64,000 nucleotides of DNA from contig JANPIM010000013.1 of the NCBI GenBank assembly GCA_031425015.1, positions 120,939-184,938 of the forward strand, written 5' to 3'. Source of the stretch: Segetibacter sp. Lineage in GTDB: Bacteria > Bacteroidota > Bacteroidia > Chitinophagales > Chitinophagaceae. The position numbers and the translations under genes were made by a program. Positions 21,752-57,253 of this stretch are shown here, in pieces. Under the pieces are notes generated by a model, which had not been told where the DNA came from, did no database searches, and saw only the letters and a program-made list of their open reading frames with translations. The stretch's first letter is position 1. Each line of letters opens with the position of its first letter.

Positions 21752-22522
21752 ATGAGTTCGTTTGCCGATAAACTAAAACATGTAAGGATCGTTCGTAAGA
21801 TAGTGTATGCGATGGTTGGCGTGATAACATATCCTGGGTTGGCTATTATAAACACGATCAAAATAGAGGGTACCGAACATCTTGAAAAATTGCCGAAGCA
21901 AAATGTATTGTTTGTCAGCAATCACCAGACTTACTTTGCGGATGTTATTACGTTCCTCCACATTTTTTGTGCAGTGAAGTGGGGCAAACGTAACAAGCTT
22001 GGAATACCCTATTACCTGCTAAATCCATTCACTAATTTATACTATGTAGCTGCTGAAGAAACAATGAATGGGAGCTTTATCAGCCGCCTTTTTAAACTGG
22101 CCGGTGCACTCACGGTTAAACGTACCTGGCGTTCAGAAGGAAAGGAAGTAAGGCGCGGCCTTGACCCATCAGATACCAGAAAAATTACGCAAGCATTAAG
22201 CAACAGCTGGATCATTACATTTCCGCAGGGTACTACCAAGCCATTTGCGCCGGGAAGAAAAGGCACATCGTTTATTATTCAGAAAAATCGACCCATTGTA
22301 GTGCCGATTGTGATCAATGGTTTTTGGCGTGCCTTCAATAAAAAAGGATTGGTATTTAAAAAGAAAGGTTCTATACTTTCTGTAAAGTTTAAGGAGCCAT
22401 TGTCTATTGATTATGATGCGCCTTCCGAAGAAATTCTGGAGCAGGTAATGGATGCCATTGAGCAAAGCAAAAGGTTCATGATGAAAGGCAAGCATCATAA
22501 GATTACGGCGACGGATAAGTGA
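21752..22522 (+). CDS. Lysophospholipid (1-acyl-sn-glycerol-3-phosphate) acyltransferase
   Basis: SNHQTYFAD (HX4D), TFPQGT, PIVVPIVI. Confidence 0.85.
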   Translation: MSSFADKLKHVRIVRKIVYAMVGVITYPGLAIINTIKIEGTEHLEKLPKQNVLFVSNHQTYFADVITFLHIFCAVKWGKRNKLGIPYYLLNPFTNLYYVAAEETMNGSFISRLFKLAGALTVKRTWRSEGKEVRRGLDPSDTRKITQALSNSWIITFPQGTTKPFAPGRKGTSFIIQKNRPIVVPIVINGFWRAFNKKGLVFKKKGSILSVKFKEPLSIDYDAPSEEILEQVMDAIEQSKRFMMKGKHHKITATDK

Positions 22523-22621
22523 GCGGAGATCAGTGACTGGTGACCAGGAAGCTTTGCAAGTTCAGTTTTCTACCAATCACTAATCACTGATTACAAGTCA
22601 CTCACCACCAACCACCGACTC
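22518..22621. repeat. Degenerate 7-mer arrays (AGTGAnn / TCACTnn types) between convergent genes
   Basis: gatcagtgactggtgaccagg ... accaatcactaatcactgattacaagtcactcaccaccaaccacc. Confidence 0.6.
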
Positions 22622-23134
22622 CTATTTCACAAACAACGCCTTCAGCTCACTCGCATCATCGGGTTTCATTTTTCCGGCGAGTATAAGTCTCAATTGCCTT
22701 CTTCTTAATGCGCCTTCATAAATCTTCTTCTCGTGTTCTGTTTCGGGTATAAGCTGTGGTACCGGCCTTGGCTTATTGTAAGGGTCCAGGGCTACAAAGG
22801 TGAAGTAGGCTTCATTGCTCTCATACCTGTATTGATGCAATAAATCTTCACCCCAAACTTGTATATGTATTTCCATTGAAGTAGTAAATGCCCTCGAAAC
22901 CTTTGCCTCTATATGCACTACGTTGCCAAGCTTTATGGGGTTCTTAAAACTAAGATTATCCACGCTAGCCGTCATGCTGGGAAAGTTGCAATGTTTGCCT
23001 GCTGCAATGCCAGCTGCAATATCCATCCAGTACATTAGGCGACCACCCATAAGGTTTCCAAAAGTATTGGTATCGTTAGGCAAAACAATTTCATTCATGA
23101 TCGTAAAACTCTCACTCGCTTTCTTCTCGGGCAT
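22622..23134 (-). CDS. Acyl-CoA thioesterase (HotDog, YciA family)
   Basis: VLPNDTNTFGNLMGGRLMYWMDIAA, TASVDNLSFKNPI, AYFTFVALD. Confidence 0.9.
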   Translation of the reverse strand: MPEKKASESFTIMNEIVLPNDTNTFGNLMGGRLMYWMDIAAGIAAGKHCNFPSMTASVDNLSFKNPIKLGNVVHIEAKVSRAFTTSMEIHIQVWGEDLLHQYRYESNEAYFTFVALDPYNKPRPVPQLIPETEHEKKIYEGALRRRQLRLILAGKMKPDDASELKALFVK

Positions 23135-23149
23135 GCGCTAAATTTTGCG

Positions 23150-23157
23150 CAAAGGTA
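23150..23157 (-). promoter_or_regulatory. -7 promoter element for the thioesterase gene
   Basis: TACCTTTG on the minus strand, ending 15 nt upstream of the ATG. Confidence 0.6.
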
Positions 23158-23415
23158 TCGGATTGTGTTTGTTGCTACTGCCGCCATCAAAGCTTAACGG
23201 ATTATTGGTGGTTGCGCAAAGTAGCATGCACGGGTTCAATTGTCTGCTCAAATGCATATATCACCTTGCTGGTCAACTTAAACCGTTTGGCTCTTTGTTG
23301 ATTGATGTGTCATTTGCTTTGTGTAGCAACCTTCGTGCGCCTTCTCCCATCAATTGTTTTTTGGATTTTTTAGTTAAACCCGCCTAACCGATATTCGCAC
23401 CGAATTAGTCTTGCT

Positions 23416-24603
23416 ATGAACATTGCTTTCGAAAACACTGAGAATGCCTTCGCTTATAAATCTACTAAAGAATTAAAGCAGGCCAAATGGCTCTTTAAGA
23501 CCATGGATATGCCGTGGCTTGTAGCCGTTGGTACGCGCCTTACTCCCCTGGCCATCAAATTAGGATTACCTGTAAATAGTTTGATTCGCAAAACCATTTT
23601 CAGCCAGTTTGTAGGTGGAGAAACAATGGAAGAAACCATTCAAGTGACCAATGTTCTGGACAAGTATAGTGTGGAAGTGATTCTTGATTATGGCGTAGAA
23701 GGAGAAGAAGGTGAAGCAAATTTTGATCACGCAACCGACGAGTTTATAAAAGTGATAGAATACGCTGCTACCCAGCCGCATATCCCTTTTATCAGTATAA
23801 AAGTTACGGGTTTATCGCGTCATGGGCTGTTGCAAACTTTGCATGAAGCACCGCGCCTTCGCTCAGGCATTCATGATGATGAAGTAGAGCGTGAAGAATG
23901 GGAGCGGGTACGTAGTCGCATGCTTCGCATATGCCAGGTGGCTTCCGATAAAAAAGTAGGTGTATTGATAGATGCAGAAGAAAGTTGGATACAGGATCCA
24001 GTGGACAGGCTCACTATGGAAATGATGGAAGCTTTTAATAAAGATTATGCAATTGTATACAACACTATTCAGTTGTATCGCCACGACCGTTTGCATTTTC
24101 TGGATCTATCTTATCGTATTGCAAAGCAGAAAAATTTTGTGTTAGGTATAAAACTCGTACGCGGTGCCTACATGGAAAAAGAGCGTGCAAGAGCTGCAGA
24201 AAACGGGTACAAGTCACCCATTCAACCTGATAAGGAAAGCACTGACCGCGACTACGATGCGGCAGTAAAATACTGCATTGATCGGATTGAAGATATTGCC
24301 TGTATTGTTGCCAGTCATAATGAAGATAGCAACCTGGAAGCCGTTCGACTTATGGAAGAAAAACAACTTCCGCTCAATCATGAGCATCTGCATTTTTCGC
24401 AGTTGTTGGGCATGAGCGATCACATCACTTTTAATTTGGCAAAAGCCGGATGCTCTGTCAGCAAGTACGTTCCTTTCGGGCCAATTAAAGAAGTAATTCC
24501 TTACCTGATGCGGCGTGCACAAGAGAACACCAGCGTATCCGGCCAAACCGGAAGGGAACTGATGCTGATTGAAAAAGAATTAGAGCGGAGAAAAGGAAAG
24601 TAG
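23416..24603 (+). CDS. Monofunctional proline dehydrogenase
   Basis: QFVGGE, LIDAEESWIQD, KLVRGAYMEKER, ASHN, FSQLLGMSD, KYVPFGP..EVIPYLMRRAQEN. Confidence 0.92.
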   Translation: MNIAFENTENAFAYKSTKELKQAKWLFKTMDMPWLVAVGTRLTPLAIKLGLPVNSLIRKTIFSQFVGGETMEETIQVTNVLDKYSVEVILDYGVEGEEGEANFDHATDEFIKVIEYAATQPHIPFISIKVTGLSRHGLLQTLHEAPRLRSGIHDDEVEREEWERVRSRMLRICQVASDKKVGVLIDAEESWIQDPVDRLTMEMMEAFNKDYAIVYNTIQLYRHDRLHFLDLSYRIAKQKNFVLGIKLVRGAYMEKERARAAENGYKSPIQPDKESTDRDYDAAVKYCIDRIEDIACIVASHNEDSNLEAVRLMEEKQLPLNHEHLHFSQLLGMSDHITFNLAKAGCSVSKYVPFGPIKEVIPYLMRRAQENTSVSGQTGRELMLIEKELERRKGK

Positions 24604-24634
24604 TTTTGGGAGCGAGCTTTGGAGATCGTCTCAA

Positions 24635-24658
24635 CATCGTTGTGTCACTCACTTGTAC
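24635..24658 (-). repeat. REP-like dispersed element copy
   Basis: Reverse complement GTACAAGTGAGTGACACAACGATG is identical to the cores at 28860 and 29016. Confidence 0.85.
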
Positions 24659-24702
24659 GATATATCATTGTCTCGCGAGCACGTAAGCATCAATGCTCAC
24701 CC

Positions 24703-24742
24703 ACTCAACTTTTCAACCTATCAACTCATCAACTAATCCACC
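24703..24742 (+). repeat. Degenerate 8-mer array (TCAACnnn) upstream of thyA
   Basis: tcaacttt tcaaccta tcaactca tcaactaa. Confidence 0.7.
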
Positions 24743-24761: not shown

Positions 24762-25556
24762 ATGCAGCAATACCTCGATTTACTTCAGCATATCTTAACG
24801 AATGGCACTGCCAAAACCGACCGCACCGGCACGGGAACCAAGAGTGTTTTTGGTTACCAGATGCGTTTCAATCTTGCTGAAGGTTTTCCGCTGGTGACTA
24901 CCAAACGGCTACACCTGAAAAGCATAATTTACGAGTTGCTGTGGTTCTTAAATGGCGATACCAATATCAAATATCTCAATGATCATGGGGTAAGCATTTG
25001 GAATGAATGGGCAAATGATCAGGGCGAACTTGGTCCCGTATATGGCAAGCAATGGCGCAGTTGGGAAGGTGCAGATGGAAAAGTGATCGATCAAATTACA
25101 TATGTAGTAAACCAGATTAAAACCAACCCCGACAGCAGGCGCATGATTGTAAGTGCTTGGAATGTGGGTGAGCTTTCGCAAATGGCTTTGATGCCGTGCC
25201 ATTCCTTATTCCAGTTTTACGTGGCTGATGGAAAATTGAGTTGCCAGTTGTACCAACGCAGTGCCGATGTTTTTTTAGGGGTTCCTTTCAACATTGCTTC
25301 TTACGCTTTGCTTACATTAATGATGGCGCAAGTTTGCAACCTGCAACCTGGCGATTTCGTGCACACTTTTGGCGACGTGCACTTGTACAATAATCATTTT
25401 GAGCAAGCGGATCTGCAACTCTCACGTACACCATTTCCATTGCCGCAGGTAAAGCTTAACCCATCGGTTAAGGATATTTTCAGCTTCCAGTTTGAAGATT
25501 TCACTATTGAAAATTATCAATACCATCCTGCTATTAAAGCACCGGTAGCCGTGTAG
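24762..25556 (+). CDS. thyA: Thymidylate synthase
   Basis: [47 protein letters not shown]. Confidence 0.98.
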
Positions 25557-27101: not shown

Positions 27102-27333
27102 CGTTCTTTAGTTGAACAAAGTTTTTGGTACTGACGTGGCTCATACATCCCAACCTAGCCATGTTTTATTTTTGAAAATTGAACGGGAAGGAGACTTCGC
27201 TGTTATTAGTGTCGTAAGAAGTAATGACAATTTTTTGAATTTTGACTTTTGAATTTAGTTGTCCCTACATCTTATTGCATTTTGCAATGTCTTTAAAACC
27301 CGATAATTTCATGCGCATCAACTCTAGTAAAAC

Positions 27334-28458
27334 ATGACGATAGGAATTTTAAAAGAACCAACGGAAGAATCTAGAATATCGTTATTGCCTGAACAAGTAC
27401 AAGCTTTGGTGAAGAAGAATGTAGCATTATTGGTAGAAACAAATGCCGGTAATACTGCATTTGCAGACGACGCCTCCTACACTACGGCGGGTGCTACCAT
27501 CGCCAACCGCCAGCAGGTATTGCAACAAAGTGATGTGGTCCTTTCTATACAAATGCTTTCCACCGATGATGTGGCACAGTTGCAAGCGGGCAAAGTTGTC
27601 TTGGGTATTTATCAACCACTGTACAATGCAGCGGTCATCCAGCAATGGGCGGCTAAGGGAATCACCACTTTTAGCATGGATATGATCCCCCGCACTACAC
27701 GTGCCCAGAGTATGGACGTGCTGAGTAGCCAGGCCAATATCGCTGGTTACCGGGCGGTGTTGTTGGCAGCAAATACCTTCCCTAAATATTTTCCCATGTT
27801 TATGACTGCAGCGGGTACCATTCCCCCTGCCAAGGTGCTGATATTAGGTGCCGGTGTCGCTGGTTTGCAAGCCATTGCCACGGCCAGGAGGTTGGGAGCA
27901 GTAGTAGAAGTATTTGATACGCGTCCGGCTGTAAAAGAAGAGGTGATGAGCCTGGGTGCAAAGTTTGTGGAAGTGGAAGGAGCGGCCGATGCATCTACTG
28001 CAGGTGGGTATGCAGTGGAACAAACAGAAGAATACAAACTAAAACAGCAGCAGAGAATTGCGGACGCCATCGCGAAAGCAGATGTAGTAATTACGACAGC
28101 ACAAATTCCGGGCACGAAGGCGCCCATCTTAATTACCGAACCGATGCTGGCGAGTATGAAAGCAGGCTCCGTAATTATTGATATTGCTGCAGCTACCGGG
28201 GGCAATACACCGTTCACCAAAAACAATGAAACCGTGGTTTATAAAGGCGCCACCATCATTGGCAACAGTAACCTGCCTGCAGGCATGCCTTCAGACGCCA
28301 GTAAATTGTATGGAAAGAATATCCTGAATTTCCTTAACCTGATGATTGATAAGGAAGGTAAATGGAACCTGAATTGGGAGGATGATTTGGTGAAAGGGAC
28401 TTGCATCACCTTCGATGGCAATGTGGTGAATGACCGGGTGAGCGGATTGGTGGGTTGA
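27334..28458 (+). CDS. pntAA: NAD(P) transhydrogenase subunit alpha, part 1 (domain I)
   Basis: RAQSMDVLSSQANIAGY, GAGVAGLQAIATARRLGA, DVVITTAQIPG, DIAAATGGN. Confidence 0.95.
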   Translation: MTIGILKEPTEESRISLLPEQVQALVKKNVALLVETNAGNTAFADDASYTTAGATIANRQQVLQQSDVVLSIQMLSTDDVAQLQAGKVVLGIYQPLYNAAVIQQWAAKGITTFSMDMIPRTTRAQSMDVLSSQANIAGYRAVLLAANTFPKYFPMFMTAAGTIPPAKVLILGAGVAGLQAIATARRLGAVVEVFDTRPAVKEEVMSLGAKFVEVEGAADASTAGGYAVEQTEEYKLKQQQRIADAIAKADVVITTAQIPGTKAPILITEPMLASMKAGSVIIDIAAATGGNTPFTKNNETVVYKGATIIGNSNLPAGMPSDASKLYGKNILNFLNLMIDKEGKWNLNWEDDLVKGTCITFDGNVVNDRVSGLVG

Positions 28459-28569
28459 TCAGTGATTGGTGATCGGTTGAGTGGGTGATGGGTTGATGAG
28501 TTGATTGGTTGATTGGTTGATTGGTTGTAGGGTTAAGGTTGAAGAGTTGAGTGGTTGAAAAGTTGATTG
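28454..28569 (+). repeat. Degenerate 8-mer array (GTTGAnnn / TTGATTGG) directly after the pntAA stop
   Basis: gggttgatgagttgattggttgattggttgattggttgtagggttaaggttgaagagttgagtggttgaaaagttgattg. Confidence 0.8.
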
Positions 28570-28582
28570 TATGAATTGCATC

Positions 28583-29066
28583 CTGCAGTTGATGACGCTA
28601 TAGAAAACATGTGCTGATGCCGAAGTTGGCGTCCGCGCCAACTGCTATAGTTAACGACGGTAAATAAGTCAACATCACTCTTAGATCAAGAAGCAAAACT
28701 TAATAGAAGTTGAATAGTAGTGTTCGGTAAAAGTGAGTGACACAACGATGCTGAGGCCGCAGTTGGCGTCCGCGCCAACTGCTAGGCAAAGGTTATTAGG
28801 TGTAAAAGAAATTGCTTTCAAAGAAGCAAAATTTGGTAAAAAATGAAAAGTGAATTGCGGTACAAGTGAGTGACACAACGATGCCGCCATGAAAAGCAAA
28901 TGCTGATGGGCTGCAGTTGGCGTCCGCGCCAACTGCTATAGACAAAGGTTATTAGGTAAAAAGGGAATCGATTTCTAAGTAGCAAAAATTGGCAAAAGAT
29001 GAACTGTGGGTTGCTGTACAAGTGAGTGACACAACGATGCAGCCATGAAAAGCAAATGCCAGCTAC
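28583..29066 (+). repeat. BIME-like tandem triplication (~135-155-nt units): perfect hairpin + diverged linker + REP-like core
   Basis: Hairpin (GC)AGTTGGCG-TCCG-CGCCAACT(GC) at 28624, 28759, 28913; core AAGTGAGTGACACAACGATGC at 28731, 28864, 29020; linkers of units 2 and 3 are visibly homologous. Confidence 0.9.
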
Positions 29067-29093
29067 CTTAAAAAATTAAAAATAATTGACGTT

Positions 29094-31064: not shown

Positions 31065-31290
31065 AACGCAAAGGCGCAAAGGAATTCCACCCAAAGGAGC
31101 AGAGGAAAGCCTCTTTATATTGTTCTTTGCGTCTTTGCTCCTTTTGATTTCTTTGCGTGAAATTGTACCTGTCGCAATGGGGCGAAAATGATTTCACGCA
31201 AAGGCGCAAAGTGAAGCACGCAAAGGCGCAAAGAAAAACCTCTAGATATGGTTCTTTGCATCTTTGCTCCTTTGCGTCTTTGCGTGAAAT
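31065..31290. repeat. Two tandem ~100-nt inverted-repeat (hairpin) elements built from CGCAAAGG/CTTTGCGT octamers
   Basis: Element 2: ATTTCACGCAAAGGCGCAAAG (31191) ... CTTTGCGTCTTTGCGTGAAAT (31290), 20/21 complementary. Element 1 (31065-31163) is a diverged duplicate. Confidence 0.85.
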
Positions 31291-31349: not shown

Positions 31350-31390
31350 TAAACTTCAAACCCTAAACCCTAAACCCCAACCCCAAACTC
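31350..31390 (-). repeat. Degenerate heptamer array after the ALDH stop
   Basis: aaactt caaaccc taaaccc taaaccc caacccc aaactc. Confidence 0.7.
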
Positions 31391-32849
31391 ACAACTCCAC
31401 ACACACATTCTTTGCTTCCGTAAAAAACCGCAGCGCTTCCCAACCGCCTTCACGGCCAACGCCGCTGTTTTTTGTGCCGCCAAAAGGTGTACGCAAATCC
31501 CGAACAAGCCAACAGTTCACCCAGATGATTCCTGCTTCCACTTTCGCTGCTACACGGTTGGCCCTGCCAATGTCTTGCGACCAAATCGTAGCCGCTAATC
31601 CGTAATGGCAGGCATTGGCTAATTGCAATGCTTCCGCTTCAGTTGTAAATGATTGTAGCGTAACAACCGGTCCAAATATTTCATCCATGTTGGTGCTGCA
31701 GTCAGGCCCCAATCCTTCTATAATCGTTGGCTTAATAAACAATCCGTTAGCACAACGACCTTCTAATTTTACTGCTTTTCCACCAGTCAATATTGTTCCG
31801 CCTTCCTGCTTTGCCACTTCTATGCAGTTTATTACTTTATCGAAATGCAGCTTACTCACAACTGCTCCTTGTTTTGAAGTTTCATCCATTGGATCACCGA
31901 CCGTAAGCTCCCTTGTTCGTGCTACAAACTCAGCTTTAAATTTTTCGTAAATACTTTCTTCCACCAGTATTCTACTACCGCATAAACAGATTTGTCCCTG
32001 GTTGCTAAAAGATGATCGCAAGGTTGCTTCCATCATTTTGTTCCAATCGCAATCAGCAAAAATGATGTTGGGATTTTTTCCACCCAACTCCAATGATAAC
32101 TTCTTAAACTTTGGTGCAGCAATGGACGCAATGCGCTCACCTGCACGTGTACTTCCCGTAAAAGAAATGGCTTTTATTGCCGGATGCGAAACAATTACTT
32201 CGCCCACGCCTGGCCCGGTTCCATGAACGATGTTCAATACGCCATCCGGCAAGCCTGCTTCTTTGCAAATCTTTGCGAGTAGATAAGCCGTGACCGGCGT
32301 TACTTCCGAAGGTTTTGCAACCACGCAATTACCGGCTGCCAAAGCCGGCGCTATCTTCCATGTAAAAAGGTATAAGGGTAAATTCCACGGCGAGATACAT
32401 CCAACAATACCAATCGGCTGGCGTAACGTATAGTTGATCGCCTTGTCTTCCATGTGGTGACTCTCTGTACTAAAGTGCATAATACCCGTTGCAAAAAACC
32501 GGAAGTTGGCAGATGCTCTTGGTATGTCAACACGTTTACTCAGCCATAGTGGTTTGCCATTGTCAGTTGTTTCGGCTATCGCTAACGCATCTAAGTTTTC
32601 ATCGATCAGTTCTGCAATCTTATTCAAAATCTTAAACCGCTCTTCAGCCGCCATCACTGACCAAACAGGGAAAGCTTGCTTAGCTGCGTTCACGGCCAGC
32701 TCTACATCTTTCTCATTGCTGTCAGGTGTATTAGAAAAAACTTCACCCGTCGCTGGATTAATGTTCTCCAAATACTTTCCACTCAGCGGCCCAATTAAAT
32801 TGCCACCTATGTAGTTCTCGAGGTAGAATGGAATAGAGAGGGATGGCAT
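31389..32849 (-). CDS. Aldehyde dehydrogenase, likely 2-aminomuconate-6-semialdehyde dehydrogenase (NbaE/AmnC/ALDH8A1-like)
   Basis: SPWNLPLYLFTWKIAPALAAGN, FTGST..G, LELGGKNP, FSNQGQICLCGSRI, DEIFGPV; adjacent to nbaC/nbaD. Confidence 0.88.
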   Translation of the reverse strand: MPSLSIPFYLENYIGGNLIGPLSGKYLENINPATGEVFSNTPDSNEKDVELAVNAAKQAFPVWSVMAAEERFKILNKIAELIDENLDALAIAETTDNGKPLWLSKRVDIPRASANFRFFATGIMHFSTESHHMEDKAINYTLRQPIGIVGCISPWNLPLYLFTWKIAPALAAGNCVVAKPSEVTPVTAYLLAKICKEAGLPDGVLNIVHGTGPGVGEVIVSHPAIKAISFTGSTRAGERIASIAAPKFKKLSLELGGKNPNIIFADCDWNKMMEATLRSSFSNQGQICLCGSRILVEESIYEKFKAEFVARTRELTVGDPMDETSKQGAVVSKLHFDKVINCIEVAKQEGGTILTGGKAVKLEGRCANGLFIKPTIIEGLGPDCSTNMDEIFGPVVTLQSFTTEAEALQLANACHYGLAATIWSQDIGRANRVAAKVEAGIIWVNCWLVRDLRTPFGGTKNSGVGREGGWEALRFFTEAKNVCVEL

Positions 32850-33000
32850 GTTTGAAGTTTGAAGTTTGAGGTTTGAAGAAAGATGTTTCTAGTATCTAGT
32901 TTAAGGTTCGAGGTTATTTCTGTAGAAAGCGACAGCAGGTAAATATTTAAATCAATGTTTGTGCTTGTCAACTTCAAACTTTAAACATCAAACTTCAAAC
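32850..33000. repeat. Inverted heptamer arrays (GTTTGAA vs TTCAAAC) bracketing about 90 nt between SDR and ALDH
   Basis: tttgaagtttgaagtttgaggtttgaag (32851-32878) ... cttcaaactttaaacatcaaacttcaaac (32972-33000). Confidence 0.8.
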
Positions 33001-33869: not shown

Positions 33870-34403
33870 ATGCCAGTAGCTTCCCCATTTAACCTAAAGG
33901 GTTGGATAAATGAACATCGTAATCTTTTAAAACCACCGGTTGGTAATCAATGCGTTTATAAGGATGCAGAAAATTTTATAGTGATGGTTGTGGGCGGCCC
34001 GAATGCACGCAAAGATTATCACTACAATGAAAGTGAAGAATTGTACTACCAGGTAGAGGGAAATATTGTGTTGAAGATTATTGATGAGGGTACGCCACGT
34101 GATATTCCCATCAACGAAGGCGACATGTTTTTACTTCCGCCACAAACGCCACACTCACCCCAGCGCCCAGCAAATACCGTTGGCTTAGTCATAGAAAAAA
34201 AACGTGAAGACGAGGAAAATGAGAAAGATGCATTCATGTGGTTCTGCGAAAATTGCGGCAATAAGTTGTACGAAGAATTTGCTTTCGTCAGCGATATTGT
34301 ACAACAGCTTCCGCCTATAATGGAGAAGTTTTATTCGAATGAATCATTGCGGACTTGTGATAAGTGCGGGGTGGTGATGGAGCCTCCAATTAAAAAAGAT
34401 TAG
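33870..34403 (+). CDS. nbaC: 3-hydroxyanthranilate 3,4-dioxygenase
   Basis: LLKPPVGN, VVGGPNARKDYH.NE.EE, PHSPQR, WFCENC...CDKCG (rubredoxin-like site). Confidence 0.96.
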   Translation: MPVASPFNLKGWINEHRNLLKPPVGNQCVYKDAENFIVMVVGGPNARKDYHYNESEELYYQVEGNIVLKIIDEGTPRDIPINEGDMFLLPPQTPHSPQRPANTVGLVIEKKREDEENEKDAFMWFCENCGNKLYEEFAFVSDIVQQLPPIMEKFYSNESLRTCDKCGVVMEPPIKKD

Positions 34404-34862
34404 AACGCAGATTTTTATGATTGTGATGATTAAAATGATTTTATGGACACTTATTTACACTCTGATATCACATCGTTAATAATAAAAGGGTTCTATACAG
34501 TTTATAATAGACTTGGTTATGGTTTTCTTGAAAAGGTTTATGAAAATGCGCTGCTATTTGAACTTAGAAAACAGGGATTAGTTTGTCAACCACAGCTGCA
34601 GGTCAAAGTTTTTTATGATGAGGTTCAAGTTGGTTATTACGTAGCTGATATGATAGTTAATGACAAAGTTATTGTAGAAATTAAAGCCGCTGAAGCTTTA
34701 TGTGAAGAACATGAAGCACAGCTTGTGAATTATTTGAGAGCAACAAATATAGACGTAGGAATACTTTTGAATTTCGGTAAGAAAGCAGAGCTGAAAAGAA
34801 AGGTGTTCTCATCTTAATTCAAAAATCATAACGCATCATCAGAATCATAAAAATCTGCGTTC
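34403..34862. mobile_element. Putative inverted-repeat-bounded GxxExxY cassette inserted between nbaC and nbaD
   Basis: GAACGCAGATTTTTATGATTGTGATGAT (34403-34430) vs ATCATCAGAATCATAAAAATCTGCGTTC (34835-34862), 27/28 complementary. Mobility is inferred, not shown. Confidence 0.55.
34443..34817 (+). CDS. GxxExxY protein (PD-(D/E)XK-like)
   Basis: LGYGFLEKVYENAL (GxxExxY), ADMIVNDKVIVEIKA, QLVNYL, GILLNFG. Confidence 0.92.
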   Translation: MDTYLHSDITSLIIKGFYTVYNRLGYGFLEKVYENALLFELRKQGLVCQPQLQVKVFYDEVQVGYYVADMIVNDKVIVEIKAAEALCEEHEAQLVNYLRATNIDVGILLNFGKKAELKRKVFSS

Positions 34863-38971: not shown

Positions 38972-39529
38972 ATGAAAAGAATACTTGTCGGCGCCCTTGT
39001 TGGTGCTATTTTAATGTTTGCGTGGCAGGCTGTTGCGCACATGTTTTTTGTATACCACCACGTGAATGTTCAGCAGGCTCCAAACAGCTCGGCCATTTTA
39101 GCATTACTGTCTTCGAGCATAAAAGAAGATGGACAATATTTTTTACCTGACATGAATGTGAATGCTACCGCAGCGGAGCAAGAAGAAATAGGAAAAAACA
39201 TGGAAGGTAAGCCATGGGCATTTGTCACTTATCATACTGCATGGAAATCGGACATGGCCATGCCTATGATCCGGCAAGTTGCAACCATGTTTTTAGTATT
39301 GGCATTTTTCATTTGGGTGCTGGGTAAATCGCCGGGTAGTTATGGTACAGTACTGGCAAAATCATTGGTTACCGGCTTCATTATTTTTTTGGCAGCGTGG
39401 TATCCGCAAAATATTTGGTGGCATATGCCATGGCCTGTACTTCAAGCCGAGTTATACGATTTAATTGCCGGTTGGGGCTTGGTGGGTCTTTGGTTGGGAT
39501 GGTGGCTGAATAGGAGGAGCGTGAAGTAG
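38972..39529 (+). CDS. Hypothetical membrane protein
   Basis: Likely start MKRILVGAL at 38972; about 4 hydrophobic segments; no family recognised. Confidence 0.7.
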   Translation: MKRILVGALVGAILMFAWQAVAHMFFVYHHVNVQQAPNSSAILALLSSSIKEDGQYFLPDMNVNATAAEQEEIGKNMEGKPWAFVTYHTAWKSDMAMPMIRQVATMFLVLAFFIWVLGKSPGSYGTVLAKSLVTGFIIFLAAWYPQNIWWHMPWPVLQAELYDLIAGWGLVGLWLGWWLNRRSVK

Positions 39530-39540: not shown

Positions 39541-39812
39541 AAGTCAAAAGTCAAAAAGCAAAAAGCAAAAAGCAAAAATAAAATCAGAATAGAGAAAGTA
39601 ATGTTGCTTTTTCGCTTTGAAAGAAGCTACATAGTAGCACAACTGCTGAACGGAATGCGACGCAAGGATGCTTAACCTGGGCACTAAAGTTTGTACCAAA
39701 ATTTTAGCATAGATCAGGATAATAAAAAAAGTCAAAAGTCAAATTAGAGGCTGACCTCTTTTTTGACTTTTGACTTTTGACTTTTGATTTTTGCTTTTTG
39801 CTTTTTTACTTG
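39541..39812. repeat. Heptamer arrays (AAGTCAA/AAGCAAA and complements) plus one REP-like copy between convergent genes
   Basis: aagtcaaaagtcaaaaagcaaaaagcaaaa (39541-); aaagtcaaaagtcaaa-ttagaggctgacctc-ttttttgacttttgacttttgac (39725-39782); REP core GAATGCGACGCAAGGATGC at 39653-39671. Confidence 0.8.
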
Positions 39813-41920: not shown

Positions 41921-42039
41921 TGTAAACCTTCAGGCAACAAAAACGAAGAATAAGCTGTTATTAGAGCTCTAATCTATAAAGCCCCTACTTCCGTAATCAA
42001 TCACTATTCAATAGTTCACAACGTCAAACGCGGCAGCAA

Positions 42040-42070
42040 CTTCAAACCTCAAACCTCAAACTCGAAACTA
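42040..42070 (+). repeat. Heptamer array (CAAACCT) before fmt
   Basis: cttcaaacctcaaacctcaaactcgaaac. Confidence 0.7.
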
Positions 42071-42081: not shown

Positions 42082-43011
42082 ATGCACCACCTCCGTATCG
42101 TCTTCATGGGCACGCCCGAGTTTGCAGTAGCATCGTTGGATGCATTGGTGCAAGCAGGCTGCAACATTGTTGGGGTGATAACAGCACCCGACAAACCTGC
42201 CGGCCGCGGAATGAAGTTAACGGAGAGTGCAGTAAAGAAATATGCAGTGGAAAATGGATTGCATGTGCTGCAACCAGAGAAGCTGAAAAATGCTGTCTTT
42301 CTGGAAGACCTAAAAGCGCTGAATGCCGACTTGCAGGTAGTGGTTGCCTTCCGCATGTTGCCCGAACTGGTTTGGAATATGCCGCCACTCGGTACTATTA
42401 ATGTGCATGGATCATTACTGCCTCAATACCGTGGTGCGGCTCCTATTAACTGGGCTGTAATGAATGGTGAAACGCAAACCGGTTTGACTACTTTTAAACT
42501 CCAGCATGCCATTGATACCGGTGACATTTTACTGCAGGACACCATAGCAATAGGAGCGGATGAAACCGCCGGCGAACTGCACGATAGAATGAAAGAAACG
42601 GGTGCTAATTTGTTGGTAAAAACCATTAAAGGTTTGGCAGATGGTTCACTAAAAGAAACACCGCAGGCAACTGCCATCATGAATGCGCTGAAGCATGCGC
42701 CGAAGATTTTTACCGACACCTGCAAGATCGATTGGAATACTACAACTGATCATATTCACAACCACATCCGTGGACTATCTCCTTTTCCCGGTGCGCTTAC
42801 GACACTGCAGGATAAAGTGCTGAAAATTTATAAAAGCAGTAAGGAAAAAGGAACGCCAACAAACCCACCCGGTACGTGGACGACCGACCATAAAACCTTT
42901 CTAAAGTTAGCCTGCACAGATGGCTATATACACCTGCTTGAACTGCAACTCGAAGGAAAGAAGCGTATGCTGATTTCGGATTTTTTGCGTGGCTTTAGGG
43001 GTGGGGTATAA
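42082..43011 (+). CDS. fmt: Methionyl-tRNA formyltransferase
   Basis: IVFMGTPEFA, TAPDKPAGRG, INVHGSLLP.YRGAAPI, DTGDIL, HAPKI. Confidence 0.97.
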   Translation: MHHLRIVFMGTPEFAVASLDALVQAGCNIVGVITAPDKPAGRGMKLTESAVKKYAVENGLHVLQPEKLKNAVFLEDLKALNADLQVVVAFRMLPELVWNMPPLGTINVHGSLLPQYRGAAPINWAVMNGETQTGLTTFKLQHAIDTGDILLQDTIAIGADETAGELHDRMKETGANLLVKTIKGLADGSLKETPQATAIMNALKHAPKIFTDTCKIDWNTTTDHIHNHIRGLSPFPGALTTLQDKVLKIYKSSKEKGTPTNPPGTWTTDHKTFLKLACTDGYIHLLELQLEGKKRMLISDFLRGFRGGV

Positions 43012-47483: not shown

Positions 47484-47501
47484 AACGGAACGTAAAATGG
47501 T

Positions 47502-47597
47502 ACGCAAATTTTTATGGTTGTTATGATTTGTTATGGATTATGTGGAATTCGTAAAAAAGATCAGTATTCATCCTTTCAGTCATAAAAATCTGCGTTC
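47502..47597. repeat. Gene-less copy of the GxxExxY inverted-repeat bracket between kynU and kmo
   Basis: Left ACGCAAATTTTTATGGTT (47502-47519) pairs with right AGTCATAAAAATCTGCGT (47578-47595). TCATAAAAATCTGCGTTC (47580-47597) is identical to 34845-34862. Confidence 0.8.
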
Positions 47598-47610
47598 AAA
47601 AATTTAGAAC

Positions 47611-48954: not shown

Positions 48955-49188
48955 AAGAGAAAATGGAGGCTTATAAGTGCGGTTTCAATAACTAATTTTA
49001 TAGTTTTCGCTAAAATAATCAGGTCATTTTGTTTTGCTTTATAAGTCTTTGAAATAGAGTGCTGGCGGGCTTTTTTCGCTGAGGCACCCCGGTATTCAAT
49101 CGATTTTGTTTTGGCCCGGCTACAGGTTTTTGATATAAGATGCATCAGAAGGCATCATACCTAAGATAAATTCCCGAAATTTGCTTTT

Positions 49189-49473
49189 ATGGAAAAGTTT
49201 CAAATGTTTGAAGAATGGTTGAAGGCAAAGCATCAACTTAACTGGCGTGAAAATATCATTCACATCACCGCCATTGATAAAGTGCTAATGGTGCCCAACT
49301 TTGAAAAGATTGCTTCGGCATCTATTCTCAATCAAATGATGAGTGCATTAAAGAAAAATGTTTCTTTCGCCTCTAAACCTAAAACAGAACGTGACAAAGA
49401 ACTAAAGTCTTTAAAACTGTACATTCAGTTTATCGAGGAAGAAAAAGTGCTAAAGAACTCTTCTGCTTCGTAA
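49189..49473 (+). CDS. Small hypothetical protein (94 aa)
   Basis: AT-rich ORF between kmo and pyrF; all-helical appearance; no family confidently recognised. Confidence 0.55.
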   Translation: MEKFQMFEEWLKAKHQLNWRENIIHITAIDKVLMVPNFEKIASASILNQMMSALKKNVSFASKPKTERDKELKSLKLYIQFIEEEKVLKNSSAS

Positions 49474-49591
49474 ATATTCCCGTCATGTGATTTTCTTTCT
49501 CCCCAATTTCCTACAACAACAGACAACGATTTTCCTGCATTTCCCAATGTAGGGCCATGCATAATCCGTTTGCAAAAACTATTCTGTATCT

Positions 49592-50441: not shown

Positions 50442-51050
50442 CTACATACCTGTGCTAAAAACTTGAACCAGGCGATCTGCCCATCTTTCATATTCTTTCG
50501 CAGACGGATGAAGTTTGTCTGCAGCCAGTAAACTGGCATCATTTGCAACTTCGCGGGTTCCGGGTGTAATGTCAATGTAGGGGCACCTGTACTTTTCAGC
50601 AATCCGTTTATTAATTGCGTTGAAGGCATCAATCTCCTTCGTAATCTCCTTTTTATTTTTCCCTGCGGCAAACGGTGTACAACCCCAATCAGGAATGGAC
50701 AGTACAGCAACGTTTGATGGTTTTTCAGCGGCGAAGTGGATGGCTTTTTTCAGCAAGAACCCAAAATCATTTTCGTAATCTGCAGCGGCCAAACCGCGGT
50801 ATTGATTGTTTACACCAATCAACAGCGACACAAAATCGTAGTGCTGATTCAATACATTGTGAATGAGGTGTTCAGCAAGTTCAGTGGTGGTCCAACCTGT
50901 TTTTGCCACAATTTCTGGCGCATGAATAGTATGTCCTGTTTGTCTCAGGTTTTGCACTGCCTGGTAGGGGAAGCTTTCATAAATTGGAAGACTTTCGCCA
51001 ATAGTATAGGAGTCGCCAAGCGCAAGGTAAGAGTAGAGATGCTTTGACAT
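50442..51050 (-). CDS. SGNH/GDSL hydrolase
   Basis: ALGDSYT, GWTT, LIGVNN, DKLHPS. Confidence 0.9.
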   Translation of the reverse strand: MSKHLYSYLALGDSYTIGESLPIYESFPYQAVQNLRQTGHTIHAPEIVAKTGWTTTELAEHLIHNVLNQHYDFVSLLIGVNNQYRGLAAADYENDFGFLLKKAIHFAAEKPSNVAVLSIPDWGCTPFAAGKNKKEITKEIDAFNAINKRIAEKYRCPYIDITPGTREVANDASLLAADKLHPSAKEYERWADRLVQVFSTGM

Positions 51051-51060: not shown

Positions 51061-51112
51061 GTGTTGAATAGTTGATTTGTTCAATGGTTGAAAGGTTGAA
51101 AAGTTGATTGGC
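51061..51112 (-). repeat. Degenerate 8-mer array before the SGNH start
   Basis: + strand gttgaatagttgatttgttcaatggttgaaaggttgaaaagttgattgg, i.e. TCAACnnn on the sense strand. Confidence 0.7.
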
Positions 51113-51151: not shown

Positions 51152-51580
51152 TTATTTAAAAACAGCATTCTTCGCTGTCCACCACGGATGAATTTCGTAT
51201 CCTAAACGACCGGCAACAATGGCCGGGTCTGTTTTCAATAGCTCTACTACTTCTTCTTTTGTTTCCGCATCGAATATAAAAACGCCGCGCCAATTACCAT
51301 CGTCACCAAAAGGTCCTGCTACCACAATTTTACCTTCTTTAGCAAGGCGGTTCAGGTTATCCATATGCCCTTGCTGAATTTTATTGATAATAGCAGTGTC
51401 GGTAATTTCACCACGCCTGTTTCCTTTGGTAAGCATTACAAAGAAGTATTGCTTCATGGTGTACTCGCCTGCCTTAAATTCTTTCACCGGTTTTTTGACC
51501 ATGGCGTCTTTGGTGGCAGGTGTTTGGGCAGAGGAAATAGCTGTTACAAACAGTACAAGAAGGAATGTTATTGTTTTCAT
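51152..51580 (-). CDS. YciI-family protein with signal peptide
   Basis: Likely start MKTITFLL (51580); HMDNL..L..EGK...AGPF, G.FIF, DPAI..G. Confidence 0.8.
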   Translation of the reverse strand: MKTITFLLVLFVTAISSAQTPATKDAMVKKPVKEFKAGEYTMKQYFFVMLTKGNRRGEITDTAIINKIQQGHMDNLNRLAKEGKIVVAGPFGDDGNWRGVFIFDAETKEEVVELLKTDPAIVAGRLGYEIHPWWTAKNAVFK

Positions 51581-52875: not shown

Positions 52876-53069
52876 GTTTTGAGACCTGACAATATTTGTG
52901 GGTTAAACTCGTCTTTAGTGGACGGGGAGTATTTCTTAGATCGTGTGAAAGGTTTGACTGTAGCGTTTCTCAGTGATTTTTATGCATATGTGCCTTAGGA
53001 ATATTTCTCTATGTTTTCTATGGAAATTCTAGTGTAACTATGTGTTTTTAACCCAACCAAACCTTTAAC

Positions 53070-53576
53070 ATGAAGCTCTTTTTAATCGGCATGCCCGGTG
53101 CCGGCAAAACCCACGCAGCAGAATTTTTAAAAAAGAAACTCAAAATTCCTGCCTACGACCTGGATGCACTTGTAGAGATGATGGAAGAAAAAACCATCAC
53201 CGAAATTTTTGAAGAAGGTGGGGAAGAAACCTTCAGAAAATTAGAGGCGAAAATGCTGCGTTTATTTAAAGAGAAGAAGAAATTTATACTCAGTACCGGT
53301 GGAGGTACACCCTGTTTTCACGATAACATAGATTGGATGAATAAAAACGGTCAAACGGTTTTTATTGATGAACCAGTTGAAGTACTCGTTGAACGTTTGG
53401 TGAACGAGCAAGAGAAACGTCCGTTATTGAAAGATAAATCAGCTTCTGAACTAGAGGCCTACCTACAGGAAACGCTGGCACAAAGAAGATCATTTTACGA
53501 AAAGGCCAGTTGCCAGTTTACATCAAAAGAGTTGGAGGCAGGTGGTTATAAGAAATTAGAAGTAGAATATGCATAA
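53070..53576 (+). CDS. aroK: Shikimate kinase
   Basis: LIGMPGAGKT, DLD, GEETFRKLE, STGGGTPC, KRPLL. Confidence 0.93.
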   Translation: MKLFLIGMPGAGKTHAAEFLKKKLKIPAYDLDALVEMMEEKTITEIFEEGGEETFRKLEAKMLRLFKEKKKFILSTGGGTPCFHDNIDWMNKNGQTVFIDEPVEVLVERLVNEQEKRPLLKDKSASELEAYLQETLAQRRSFYEKASCQFTSKELEAGGYKKLEVEYA

Positions 53577-55015: not shown

Positions 55016-55107
55016 CGGAGTGTTCCGCCAGGCAATCAATTAAGTTGTAAAACGCAACGAAGTATCCTTCATCAACTTACTTTTACTGCTTATCACCTGT
55101 AAACAAC

Positions 55108-55539
55108 ATGCAAAATAAGAACGCCGCTTTCGATGTAGTAAACGAAGTATTGGAAGCTTGTATTCTTGCCTACCCTGTGTCTTCGTTTGTCATTAGCCTG
55201 TACAAGCAATACCAGATTAGGGGCAGTCTTAGCAAAAAACAGTTGGAGGGCTTGTATGGTAAGGCTTCAAAAATTGAAGACTTATCGCCGGGCAAACTGG
55301 CAACATTAGAGGCACTCATCAAAAAAATGCCAAACCGGTTTAAGTCTGATAAGCCTGAGCCAAAAGAGGAAGTACAAAAAGATGAGCGGATGGGAAAGCT
55401 AATGGATGATATTTTACTTAAATATCCGCAGCACAAGCGTGTTATATTTCTTAAAGCTAAGTATACCAACAACGAGCTTTTAACGGCAGCAGACCTGGCG
55501 GATTTGAAACGGTTTGAACAGGTAATGACAAAGAAGTAA
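55108..55539 (+). CDS. Hypothetical protein with an internal two-fold repeat
   Basis: 143-aa ORF; two ~31-aa segments align without gaps (see findings). Confidence 0.75.
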   Translation: MQNKNAAFDVVNEVLEACILAYPVSSFVISLYKQYQIRGSLSKKQLEGLYGKASKIEDLSPGKLATLEALIKKMPNRFKSDKPEPKEEVQKDERMGKLMDDILLKYPQHKRVIFLKAKYTNNELLTAADLADLKRFEQVMTKK

Positions 55540-55640
55540 GTGGCATTTCAGGTTTGGAGATTTTTCAAGCACTTCAATTTTACCGGGATCTGCATCGCAA
55601 AAGAAAGCGATAAGCCGGATTGCTTCCATAACACCTTTCT

Positions 55641-56324
55641 CTAAACAACAACCTCTGTATTACTCACTTCATTTTCTATTATTCTGCCGTCCTTCATATG
55701 AATAACGCGATCACTTAATAAAGCCAGTTCTTCATTATGTGTAACAATTAAAAACGTCTGGTTGAATTCATTCCTCAGGTGAATAAATAATTCATGCAGT
55801 TCCTTAGCATTCTTGCTATCCAAATTGCCTGTTGGCTCATCTGCAAAAACAATTTCCGGGCTATTGATCAATGCTCTCGCCACCGCTACACGTTGCTGCT
55901 CACCACCGCTAAGTTGGTTGGGTTTGTTATCCAGCCGATGCCCAAGGTTTAGGGTGGCCAGTAATTGCTTCGCTCGTTCCTCCACATCCTTTTTGCGCGT
56001 ACCGGCAATCCACCCCGGAATGCAAACGTTTTCCAACGCATTGAATTCAGGTAGTAAATGATGAAACTGGAAAACAAAACCAATGTGCTTATTTCGAAAT
56101 TTAGCCAGTTGCTTTCCGCCTAACTTATCAACGCGATTATTGTTTAAATAAATCTCGCCTTTGTCTGCATTGTCAAGCGTACCCAAAATATGCAACAGCG
56201 TGCTTTTACCTGCTCCAGACGACCCGGCAATGCTTACAATTTCGCCCTTGTTTACTGTAAGGTCTACACCCTTAAGTACCTCAAGCGAATCATATTTTTT
56301 ATGGATATTCTTACACGTAAGCAT
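55641..56324 (-). CDS. lolD: ABC transporter ATP-binding protein, LolD-like
   Basis: [58 protein letters not shown]; 227 aa. Confidence 0.8.
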
Positions 56325-56358
56325 TCGGTGTGTTTAGTGATAATTTGGTAATGAGTTG

Positions 56359-56366
56359 CAAACCTA
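56359..56366 (-). promoter_or_regulatory. -7 promoter element for the lolD-like gene
   Basis: TAGGTTTG on the minus strand. Confidence 0.55.
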
Positions 56367-56430
56367 CATCAGCACGGGGTAAGGCCGATAATTTTAGGGA
56401 AATATATAACCTGGTGTTCTAAAAGGTTCA

Positions 56431-56461
56431 TTTGGTTATTTCGTTTATACACCTACATTTG
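56431..56461 (+). promoter_or_regulatory. Canonical Bacteroidota housekeeping promoter for the DUF2795 gene
   Basis: TTTG (56431-56434) - 19 nt - TACATTTG (56454-56461). Confidence 0.8.
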
Positions 56462-56484
56462 CAAAAATTATAAATCGATCGCCG

Positions 56485-56706
56485 ATGTTTTGGACACTTG
56501 AATTAGCCAGTTATTTAGAAGAAGCACCTTGGCCGGCAACCAAAGACGAGTTGATTGATTACTCTATTCGTTCTGGTGCGCCCATCGAAGTTGTTGAGAA
56601 CCTCCAGGAGTTGGAAGACGAAGGAGAGGTGTACGAAAGTATTGAAGACATTTGGCCTGATTACCCTAGCCAGGATGACTTCATGTTTAATGAAGACGAG
56701 TACTAA
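56485..56706 (+). CDS. DUF2795 domain protein
   Basis: MFWTLELASYLEEAPWPATKDELIDYSIRSGAP.EVVENL. Confidence 0.9.
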   Translation: MFWTLELASYLEEAPWPATKDELIDYSIRSGAPIEVVENLQELEDEGEVYESIEDIWPDYPSQDDFMFNEDEY

Positions 56707-56721
56707 AAAACAGTTCAGCAT

Positions 56722-56757
56722 AAAAAAAACCATCCTAGTTTACAGGATGGTTTTTTT
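56722..56757. terminator. Bidirectional intrinsic terminator
   Basis: AAAAAAACCATCCT-agtttac-AGGATGGTTTTTTT. Confidence 0.85.
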
Positions 56758-56787
56758 GTGCCCGGCATCAAAACAATTTTCACCGTC

Positions 56788-56808
56788 CGTTGCGTCGCAC
56801 TCTTATAC
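56788..56808 (-). repeat. REP-like dispersed element copy
   Basis: Reverse complement GTATAAGAGTGCGACGCAACG. Confidence 0.75.
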
Positions 56809-56868
56809 AGTATCTCTTTAATTTTCTTTTATTATGTTTTGTAGTGCACCTGCATTACCCATTTCCAA

Positions 56869-57138
56869 CTATACTTTACTTCCTTTTTTAAAGGCATATT
56901 TAAAGTATAGCAGCACCAACGATAGCACCAGTATTACCGAATTAGCAATGATGACGGGAAGTAAATTCAAGTAAAATCCATACACCAACCACACAATTAC
57001 ACTGGTAAACACAATCAACAACATTCCTAGTGAGAGGTCGCCCACACTTCTGCTTTTGTAGGCTAGTACCACTTGAGGAATAAAAGTGATAGCAGAAAGG
57101 AAAGCGCCAAATAATCCTACGTATTCTATCCAGGGCAT
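56869..57138 (-). CDS. SemiSWEET (PQ-loop) transporter
   Basis: 89 aa, 3 TM helices, TFIPQV, DLS, WLVYG, PVIIAN. Confidence 0.9.
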   Translation of the reverse strand: MPWIEYVGLFGAFLSAITFIPQVVLAYKSRSVGDLSLGMLLIVFTSVIVWLVYGFYLNLLPVIIANSVILVLSLVLLYFKYAFKKGSKV

Positions 57139-57253
57139 TGGTTTGGTTGATTAGTTGAGTTGTGATTGGTTGATTGGTTAATAAGTTGAATGGCTGAAAG
57201 GTCAAAAGCTGAAACACGATCAAACCTCAATTTTTGACTTTTGACTTTGAAAA
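57139..57253 (-). repeat. Mixed 7/8-mer arrays between fabI and SemiSWEET
   Basis: Sense strand: aaagtcaaaagtcaaaa after the fabI stop; tcaacc/tcaact arrays before the SemiSWEET ATG. Confidence 0.7.

Follow-up and report, generated by a model that had tools for sequence, protein, structure and literature searches.

Degenerate 7- and 8-nucleotide intergenic arrays of a Segetibacter genome follow a dyad-symmetric polarity and may be the arms of hairpin elements

The cyanobacterial heptamer repeats called short tandemly repeated repetitive (STRR) sequences are a known class of repeat related to the subject of this work, the degenerate 7- and 8-nucleotide (nt) arrays between the genes of a Segetibacter sp. 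genome. We analysed these arrays in a 64,000-nt stretch of that genome (C13:120939-184938, hereafter the window), in the remainder of the genome and in its relatives. In Xanthomonas (GGGAATC) and Nostoc (GGGGAYT), heptameric repeats occur in hundreds of intergenic copies, with the G-rich strand located up to 50 bp after a stop codon in sense orientation or up to 50 bp upstream of an open reading frame (ORF) in antisense orientation (Rehm et al., 2015; PMC4692102). These repeats lie near the 5' neighbouring ORF whichever its orientation, are under-represented between divergent ORFs and form 70-75 convergent inverted pairs; their positions are conserved between species, their length and sequence vary, and the rule has been explained by G-quadruplexes (PMC4692102). 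The intervening sequence (IVS) in the 23S rRNA of Coxiella has a 28-bp terminal stem with two to three GACAGAT heptamers in the 5' arm before the S23p ORF, is cut by RNase III at the first repeat and varies in repeat copy number between strains (Warrier et al., 2016; PMC4990558). The arrays described here resemble both systems, and their orientation follows a dyad-symmetric, centre-pointing polarity, which is a property of the element and not of the strand.

The genome comprises 4.91 Mb in 50 contigs, for which an in-house ORF caller based on codon usage gave 3836 genes (86% coding). Judged by a GxxExxY protein, the nearest named relatives are Segetibacter, Ferruginibacter and further metagenome-assembled Chitinophagaceae. 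Arrays were detected with Tandem Repeats Finder (TRF), and dinucleotide shuffles of the spacers served as the null. Arrays as described by an initial annotation of the window are present in the sequence at all 13 intervals that it had named. TRF found 11 of these with a score of at least 30 and missed the two at 22518-22621, which are too degenerate. Over all spacers of the genome, we found 286 arrays of period 7 against 16-23 in the shuffles and 135 arrays of period 8 against 23-26, while periods of 10 and above showed no surplus over shuffles. The approximately 390 intergenic arrays of 7-8 nt have a median of 3.9 units and a maximum of 14. Although spacers make up 13.5% of the genome, they contain the majority of all 7/8-nt arrays, at a median distance from the gene end of 12-13.5 nt and at densities of 0.88 per kb of spacer between convergent, 0.63-0.76 between tandem and 0.35 between divergent genes. 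The commonest unit families are AAAAGTC (52), GAGGTTT (29), GAAGTTT (25), AAAAATC (22) and GTGAGTT (15). Most arrays are locus-specific, with 331 distinct units in 704 rows, and only about 82 of the 390 have a clearly complementary partner. In G028, a genome from another family of the same order (C1:1000001-1400000), AAAAGTG accounts for 18 of 53 period-7/8 arrays, AAAAGTC being dominant in the genome of the window; the dominant unit seems to be private to each genome.

By composition, we classified the arrays as G-type, C-type, A-rich or T-rich, and called them left or right according to the nearer flanking gene on the plus strand. The C content of G-type arrays is 2% and the G content of C-type arrays 3%. 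The initial annotation had proposed that, read on the sense strand of the adjacent gene, G-type arrays follow a stop codon and C-type arrays precede a start codon or close a hairpin. By our own gene calls, all 13 listed arrays obey this rule with respect to the nearest gene. Two G-type arrays, at 22518 and 28454, have the TGA stop of the preceding gene in their first unit, and those at 31350 and 32972 are G-type after a stop when read on the minus sense strand. The arrays at 24703, 32851, 42040 and 51061 and the left part of 57139 are C-type just ahead of a start on the sense strand, and the start codons of the ALDH and SemiSWEET genes follow the last array unit by 0-1 nt. The assignment of 51061-51112 is ambiguous, as this array also lies 39 nt past the stop of the gene at 51152-51580 (-) and is C-type on the sense strand of that gene.

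Orientation is also non-random genome-wide, with left/right counts of 73/16 for G-type and 18/73 for C-type arrays (Fisher p=1e-17) and a weaker trend in the same direction for A-rich (55/26) and T-rich arrays (29/55; p=2e-5). Read on the sense strand, 51 G-type and 28 A-rich arrays lie no more than 6 nt past a stop codon, compared with one C-type and three T-rich arrays (79:4, p=4e-19), and the polarity is also found family by family of units. It is repeated in two relatives, the congener G014 (520 kb; 15/4 against 2/12, p=4e-4) and G028 (400 kb; 5/1 against 0/4). Single arrays in divergent spacers lie far from genes and show no left/right bias. In front of G-type arrays the stop codons are TAG in 41% and TGA in 28% of cases, compared with genome averages of 28% and 15%. 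This suggests that the end of the element often supplies or abuts the stop codon. The TGA/TCA core alone was tried as an orientation marker, and its bias is modest because TTTTGAC behaves opposite to GTTGA.

The arrangement of two arrays within one spacer reveals what is behind this rule. The purine-type array (G-type or A-rich) comes before the pyrimidine-type array (C-type or T-rich) in 64 pairs and after it in five pairs (p=4e-14), and the order is kept between two forward genes (24:1), convergent genes (16:1), two reverse genes (17:1) and divergent genes (7:2). The element therefore reads 5'-purine-type arm, centre, pyrimidine-type arm-3' on either strand, and the strand-specific rule of the initial annotation has to be abandoned: what had looked like a strand rule follows automatically from ordinary genes lying outside the element. 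Many pairs are chimeric, combining unrelated unit families as in (GTTTGAG)n...(CTCACTA)n, and keep the polarity without complementarity. The purine/pyrimidine classes work as a unifier, yet the G/C class is one of keto versus amino bases (G+T versus A+C), and we found no single compositional principle covering all array classes.

The genes found inside such elements are of two families. The genome contains five GxxExxY genes (TIGR04256) and seven four-helix-bundle genes (TIGR02436), and about eight of these 12 loci are bracketed by inverted degenerate arrays, in agreement with the statement of the initial annotation that similar arrays flank both gene types in Bacteroidota. Each bracketed locus has its own unit (for example TTATGAT/ATCATAA, GTTTGAG/CTCAAAC, AATTTGAC/GTCAAATT, GGAAATT/..TTTCC.., AAAAAGT/ACTTTTT), and in every case the purine-type arm is left and the pyrimidine-type arm right, whichever the cargo strand. 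Relative to the cargo, the rule is reversed, with the G-arm directly ahead of the cargo ATG and the C-arm after its stop, which places the cargo inside the element and ordinary genes outside. Cargo is co-directional with both neighbours at 10 of 10 loci of this genome, and across four congeners, most of the 20 four-helix-bundle loci have the same brackets. A survey with a single-protein query gave 78 GxxExxY loci in Bacteroidota, Ignavibacteria, Planctomycetota, Nitrospirota, Chloroflexota and other groups, most of them bracketed by such arms. On the left flank GAT exceeds ATC at 60:13 loci and G exceeds C at 63:14, on the right flank ATC exceeds GAT at 52:16, and many loci, whose units of 8-10 nt end in GAT, have in common the terminus TAGAACGCAGAT...ATCTGCGTTCTA. 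Cargo and flanking ORFs are co-directional in 116 cases and opposed in six; this is the one real strand asymmetry, which selection or mechanism could explain.

Gene-less copies with GxxExxY-type termini form a family of about 12 in the genome, including 47484-47610. A comparison with miniature inverted-repeat transposable elements gives about 12 copies and conserved termini for the ACGCAGAT family, whereas most arrays are locus-specific. The function of PF13366 is not known (PMC3424549), PF05635 is Avd-like (PMC10053308), and our literature search on GxxExxY, PF13366 and TIGR02436 found no functional description. A scan for new cargo types by flank complementarity recovered mainly known cargo and RAYT/IS200-type genes, and a polarity-based scan yielded too few TRF-positive flanks. 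A 168-aa secreted-looking protein at C13:338647-339153 lies between a left GTTTGAG array and a right T-rich array, the inside arrangement that we otherwise saw for cargo genes alone. A repeat system separate from the 7/8-mer arrays is represented by two RAYT genes, one of which was scored (NF047646, 96.8 bits), together with two Y1 transposase genes of the IS200/IS605 type; all four are flanked by inverted repeats (C41:15765-16409, C41:23631-24275, C41:183330-183788 and C35:101979-102458).

Compared with the Xanthomonas and Nostoc heptamers, our arrays show the same intergenic excess at about 7 nt, the same rule for the G-rich strand, the same rarity between divergent ORFs, the same inverted pairs and the same constancy of position with changing length and sequence. 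They differ in having many unit families per genome, mostly without G-tracts, and in that A/T-type arrays obey the rule as well; the link to four-helix-bundle and GxxExxY cassettes is absent from PMC4692102. The rule itself is thus already published for other taxa, and its extension to many non-quadruplex units in Bacteroidota, and its direct tie to the two cassette types and to their turnover at junctions, appear to be new. With the ORF-bearing 23S IVSs of Coxiella burnetii and Leptospira, the elements share a long terminal stem around a small S23p-family gene and purine-rich heptamers before the ORF. Such a stem is found in paired and cargo-bearing elements, not in solo or chimeric arrays. 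Unlike those IVSs, which occupy helices 25/45, all arrays and cassettes here lie between protein-coding genes, most copies are gene-less, and RNase III processing is presumed only. The repetitive extragenic palindromes (REP/REPIN) with their RAYT genes (PMC3116915) and the Ssn/NTS system (PMC11893778) likewise have a small gene framed by an inverted, otherwise dispersed gene-less repeat, with each genome having its own repeat population. In contrast to both, the cargo here is neither a Y1 transposase nor a GIY-YIG nuclease but PF13366 (PD-(D/E)XK) or TIGR02436, and the arms are degenerate tandem arrays and not a fixed palindrome of 20-30 nt.

The arrays and elements of the window are as follows (plus-strand coordinates).

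22518..22548, degenerate G-type array of AGTGA/GGTGA units; the first unit holds the TGA stop of the acyltransferase gene (21752-22522, +).
22570..22621, C-type array of CAATCAC/TCACTNA units, abutting the stop of the convergent thioesterase gene (22622-23134, -) and G-type on its sense strand.
24703..24742, C-type TCAACnnn octamers (period 8, 4.2 copies), 19 nt ahead of the ATG at 24762.
27233..27256, T-rich array with 3.4 heptamer units (TTTTGAA/TTTTGAC), occupying part of a tandem spacer's right half.
28436..28575, long G-type array of about 14 GTTGAnnn/GTGATnG units, enclosing the pntAA TGA stop (28456-28458).
31065..31290, two hairpin elements with a 5' arm of ACGCAAAGG octamers and a 3' arm of CCTTTGCGT, of the same polarity and another unit family.
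31350..31407, C-type array of AAACCCT/AACCCCA units, containing the stop of ALDH (31389-32849, -).
32850..33000, gene-less hairpin of (GTTTGAA)x4, a 91-nt centre and (TTCAAAC)x4, filling the ALDH-SDR spacer from start codon to stop codon.
34403..34862 (+), GxxExxY cassette at the nbaC-nbaD junction, with left arm 34403-34442, cargo gene 34443-34817 and right arm 34819-34862.
39541..39580, A-rich array of AAGTCAA / AAAAGCA heptamers, 11 nt past the stop of the gene at 38972-39529 (+).
39725..39812, (AAAAGTC)n arm, GC core stem-loop (AGAGGctgaCCTCT) and (GACTTTT)n arm between convergent genes, in the spacer between the gene at 38972 and the PPIase gene.
42038..42070, C-type array of CTTCAAAC/CTCAAAC, 11 nt ahead of the ATG at 42082.
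47484..47610, GxxExxY-type element without a gene, located in the kynU-kmo spacer and having ACGCAAATTTTTATGG...TCATAAAAATCTGCGTTC as its termini (fold z=-2.1).
51061..51112, G-type GTTGAwww octamers; the GDSL-lipase gene (50442-51050, -) has its start codon 10 nt away.
53004..53069, right arm left as a relic ahead of the ATG at 53070, reading CTCTATG TTTTCTATGG .. TAACTATGTG and next AACCCAACCAAACC.
57139..57253, chimeric pair of a G-type arm of GGTTGATT units (57139-57210) and a T-rich TTTTGAC arm (57225-57253).
63016..63038, array of AGTTTGAA x2.9, outside the range of the initial annotation.

The cargo gene of the GxxExxY cassette matches TIGR04256 with 131.6 bits and belongs to PF13366; its left arm reads GAACGCAGAT TTTTATGAT TGTGATGAT TAAAATGAT and its right arm ...ATCATAAAAATCTGCGTTC. 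The unit family of 31065..31290 also flanks a GxxExxY gene at C8:5172, and 31065-31160 folds with z=-2.8. The two degenerate arrays at 22518-22548 and 22570-22621 fold together better than shuffles (z=-2.6), and the long array at 28436..28575 has no complementary partner that we could find. Long hairpins had been proposed for three spacers. Two of them hold, namely SDR-ALDH (z=-5.05) and the spacer after the PPIase gene (-31 kcal/mol, z=-8.4); the fabI-SemiSWEET spacer does not fold in this way (z=-0.6) because its two arms come from different unit families. These arms are not complementary, the G-type arm lying 1 nt from the SemiSWEET ATG and the T-rich arm abutting the fabI stop. On its minus strand, the array at 31350-31407 resembles plant-type telomere repeats.

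Elements are gained, lost and replaced as DNA at the same junction between species. The congener G014 is syntenic with window positions 31389-53955 at 75-85% amino-acid identity. Cargo genes were found in relatives at three orthologous junctions, in contrast to the lack of cargo at such sites that the initial annotation had named as refuting its idea. The spacer between 51691 and 53070 is 1195 nt long in G014, where it holds hairpin units of CACATAG/CTATGTG and a gene of the GxxExxY type (TIGR04256, 133.9 bits), and the window has kept only a relic right arm of the CTATGTG type. In G011, a four-helix-bundle cassette (101 bits) lies directly past the ALDH stop, where the window has the array 31350-31390. 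The nbaC-nbaD junction holds a GxxExxY cassette in the genome of the window and in G014, G013 and G010, and in G011 GTTTGAT/CTCAAAC arms around a four-helix-bundle gene that scores 79.7 bits and has one internal stop. At this one junction, a change of arms thus goes with a change of cargo type.

The gene-less elements show the same turnover. At ALDH-SDR, the arrays of G014 have the same polarity and other units, and G011 has a gene-less ACGCAGAT-type element, making three arm families at this junction. Between 40503 and 42106, the window has a C-arm only and G014 a full hairpin of other units, (AAGTTGAT)...(TATCAACY). In the convergent spacer after the PPIase gene (39725..39812), the AAAAGTC/GACTTTT arms are kept in G014 but enclose another GC core stem, and the kynU-kmo element is absent from G014, where the spacer is 61 nt. 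The pntAA-pntAB spacer is a 635-nt mosaic in the window, 13 nt in G014 and array-free in five further congeners, so the mosaic is a recent gain. Following the G-type array, this spacer contains three REP-like units of about 156 nt (28576-29093), each with a perfect GCAGTTGGCGTCCGCGCCAACTGC hairpin and a ...CAAGTGAGTGACACAACGATGC core. Across eight congeners, neither four-helix-bundle nor GxxExxY cargo was found at the pntAA-pntAB junction, where spacers are variable or empty. The same holds for the fabI-SemiSWEET junction in 17 congeners, with a highly variable spacer of other units or none.

Some further observations concern individual spacers. Downstream of fabI, G004 (L182) and G006 (L175) have GGTCAAT/AGTCATT G-type arrays past the stop. 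Before SemiSWEET, G004 has about 870 nt of inserted sequence with a 165-aa lipoprotein-like ORF, which is matched by neither cargo family in tblastn and ends beside an (ATTCAAC)n C-type array. The GDSL-lipase gene (50442-51050) is inverted in G014, with a longer GTTGAwww G-type array still on the same side of the same spacer and an additional (GTTTCTG)...(CAGAAAC) element flanking the gene on its opposite side. The 637-nt spacer at 48955-49591 contains a 94-aa ORF (49189-49473) without an NCBIfam match, and the orthologous spacer of G014 is 56 nt.

We favour, at about even confidence, the explanation that the arrays are paired, solitary or chimeric arms of one class of dyad-symmetric hairpin elements located downstream of genes. 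The purine-type arm is either rich in G, T and A and free of C or A-rich, the pyrimidine-type arm is either rich in C and A and free of G or T-rich, and the element usually begins at one gene's stop codon and extends to the start or stop codon of the following gene. Complete members hold one small promoter-less central gene, co-directional with the host genes, with four-helix-bundle (Avd/S23p-like) cargo going with arms of about 7-nt units and GxxExxY PD-(D/E)XK cargo with 8-10-nt units ending in GAT and the terminus GAACGCAGAT. A read-through transcript probably folds into a long stem, and a cut by RNase III, as in IVSs, would free the cargo RNA from the host mRNA. The A/T-type arms around a GC core probably double as bidirectional terminators. 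As for the polarity, the cargo probably needs a purine-rich arm upstream, for initiation and to provide stops in every frame; the complement of that arm lies downstream, and the polarity would pass to gene-less copies. Alternatively, Rho avoidance may account for it, with the C-free arm transcribed first and the C-rich arm paired on emergence.

Several observations weigh against this explanation. Although the brackets at cargo genes and the cargo of relatives at three junctions speak for the relic or empty cassette arms of the initial annotation, cargo is present at only about 10 of the 390 arrays; together with the low number of complementary partners, this means that for most arrays we infer the descent from cassettes and do not see it. 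Two four-helix-bundle loci (L128 and L129) have direct instead of inverted flanks, and units differ between orthologous spacers, which local slippage would also fit. We identified no transposition event, target duplication or trans-acting enzyme (target-site duplications were not looked for). The rationale of stops in all frames is not general either, as 36 of 81 A-rich arms contain no stop codon. A guard against read-through by three-frame stops was considered as the basis of the polarity; it fits the G-type arms, 49 of 89 of which are closed in three frames, and fails for the A-rich ones, and (A,C) pairs are not avoided.

The arrays could instead be autonomous simple sequence repeats like the STRRs, expanded in place by polymerase slippage that favours 7-8 nt, with selection on untranslated regions filtering their orientation and the cargo being coincidental. 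Slippage readily accommodates orthologous spacers that keep the position of an array and differ in its units, runs of identical neighbouring units (GTTGATTG x3), the diversity of units across the genome, the variable copy number and the general heptamer excess of bacteria, which has been put down to slippage (PMC4692102). Against it stand the 64:5 order of pairs, which slippage alone does not predict, the spread of a few unit families over dozens of loci (AAAAGTC, GAGGTTT and GAAGTTT), the joint switch of arms and cargo type at a junction and the GAACGCAGAT termini conserved across phyla, and selection at starts should also act on the single arrays of divergent spacers, which have no polarity. 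We consider this origin unlikely. Somewhat less likely still, in our view, are intrinsic and often bidirectional terminators or 3'-end stabilising hairpins, in which the arms would be expanded A- and U-tracts. The element at 39725-39812, with its A-arm, GC core stem and T-arm (z=-8.4), looks like a bidirectional terminator and keeps its layout in G014 with a different core, and the A/T-type arrays with a central GC stem in general look like such terminators. In favour, too, are 18 A-then-T pairs with short centres and the position of arrays, which adjoin stop codons and are densest between convergent and sparsest between divergent genes. Terminator features, present at 39725-39812 and in some A/T pairs, are absent in the G/C-type elements, which have an A/C-rich 3' arm without a U-tract; many pairs are non-complementary, elements enclose translated genes, and others are located inside operons (pntAA-pntAB, nbaC-nbaD and ALDH-SDR), where termination would be harmful.

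In its strong form, the idea of the initial annotation would be that a strand-specific, RNA-level system, such as IVS-like excision with reverse insertion, places the cassettes and leaves the polarity as its footprint. The co-directionality of cargo and host genes (116:6), an architecture like that of RNase III-excised IVSs and the placement of elements exactly from a stop to the next start are in line with it. We regard it as very unlikely, since the polarity is the same on both strands, no link to a reverse transcriptase or ligase was found, and elements also lie between convergent genes, a setting in which they are not defined by any single transcript. Across 38 GxxExxY cassettes, the arms show no G:U excess, their mismatches on the cargo sense strand being G:U in 40 and A:C in 45 cases; the RNA-level claim is thus unsupported, and the absence of such a signal also counts against the hairpin-element explanation. 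Generic spacer hairpins showed a weak G:U excess at a low score threshold (341 against 263), which was gone at higher thresholds. Finally, G-quadruplex-forming regulatory repeats, as proposed for Xanthomonas and Nostoc, are an alternative whose positional rule matches ours (PMC4692102), and 31350-31407 reads GTTTAGGG/GGGGTT after the ALDH stop on the sense strand (GGGTTTA/GGGGTT units). This is the only listed array with quadruplex-capable G-tracts and the only one with four or more of them. The dominant units GTTTGAG, GTTTGAA, GGTTGAT, GTGAGTT and AAAAGTC lack tracts of at least three G and show equal or stronger polarity, so that the quadruplex explanation does not carry over; it is contradicted for this genome and hardly credible here.

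Returning to the hairpin elements, we tentatively extend the explanation, as a conjecture we think rather doubtful, to one unrecognised superfamily of phased-repeat hairpin cassettes. It would include the Bacteroidota arrays, the STRR/GGGGAYT repeats, the Xanthomonas GGGAATC repeats and the ORF-bearing 23S IVSs. Their arms might be read by cognate small proteins, those of 7-nt units by pentameric Avd/S23p-like four-helix bundles and those of 8-10-nt units by GxxExxY nucleases, and the universal polarity, in which transcription always reaches the C-free purine-type arm first, might be a design rule arising from folding during transcription, avoidance of Rho and translation of the cargo.

These arrays are present in hundreds of spacers per genome, touch stop and start codons directly and are located inside operons such as pntAA-pntAB, the kynurenine genes and ALDH-SDR. 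A role in the processing, termination and translation of mRNA is therefore probable, in a phylum not known to use Shine-Dalgarno-led initiation. In practice, the polarity tells cargo, inside the element, from the genes outside it, and flags spacers with quick turnover between species. By showing the orientation rule for many units unable to form quadruplexes and tying it to two orphan families (PF05635 and PF13366) and to rRNA intervening sequences, the analysis offers a testable hypothesis for a repeat class that has long lacked an explanation, the STRR and other heptameric simple sequence repeats.

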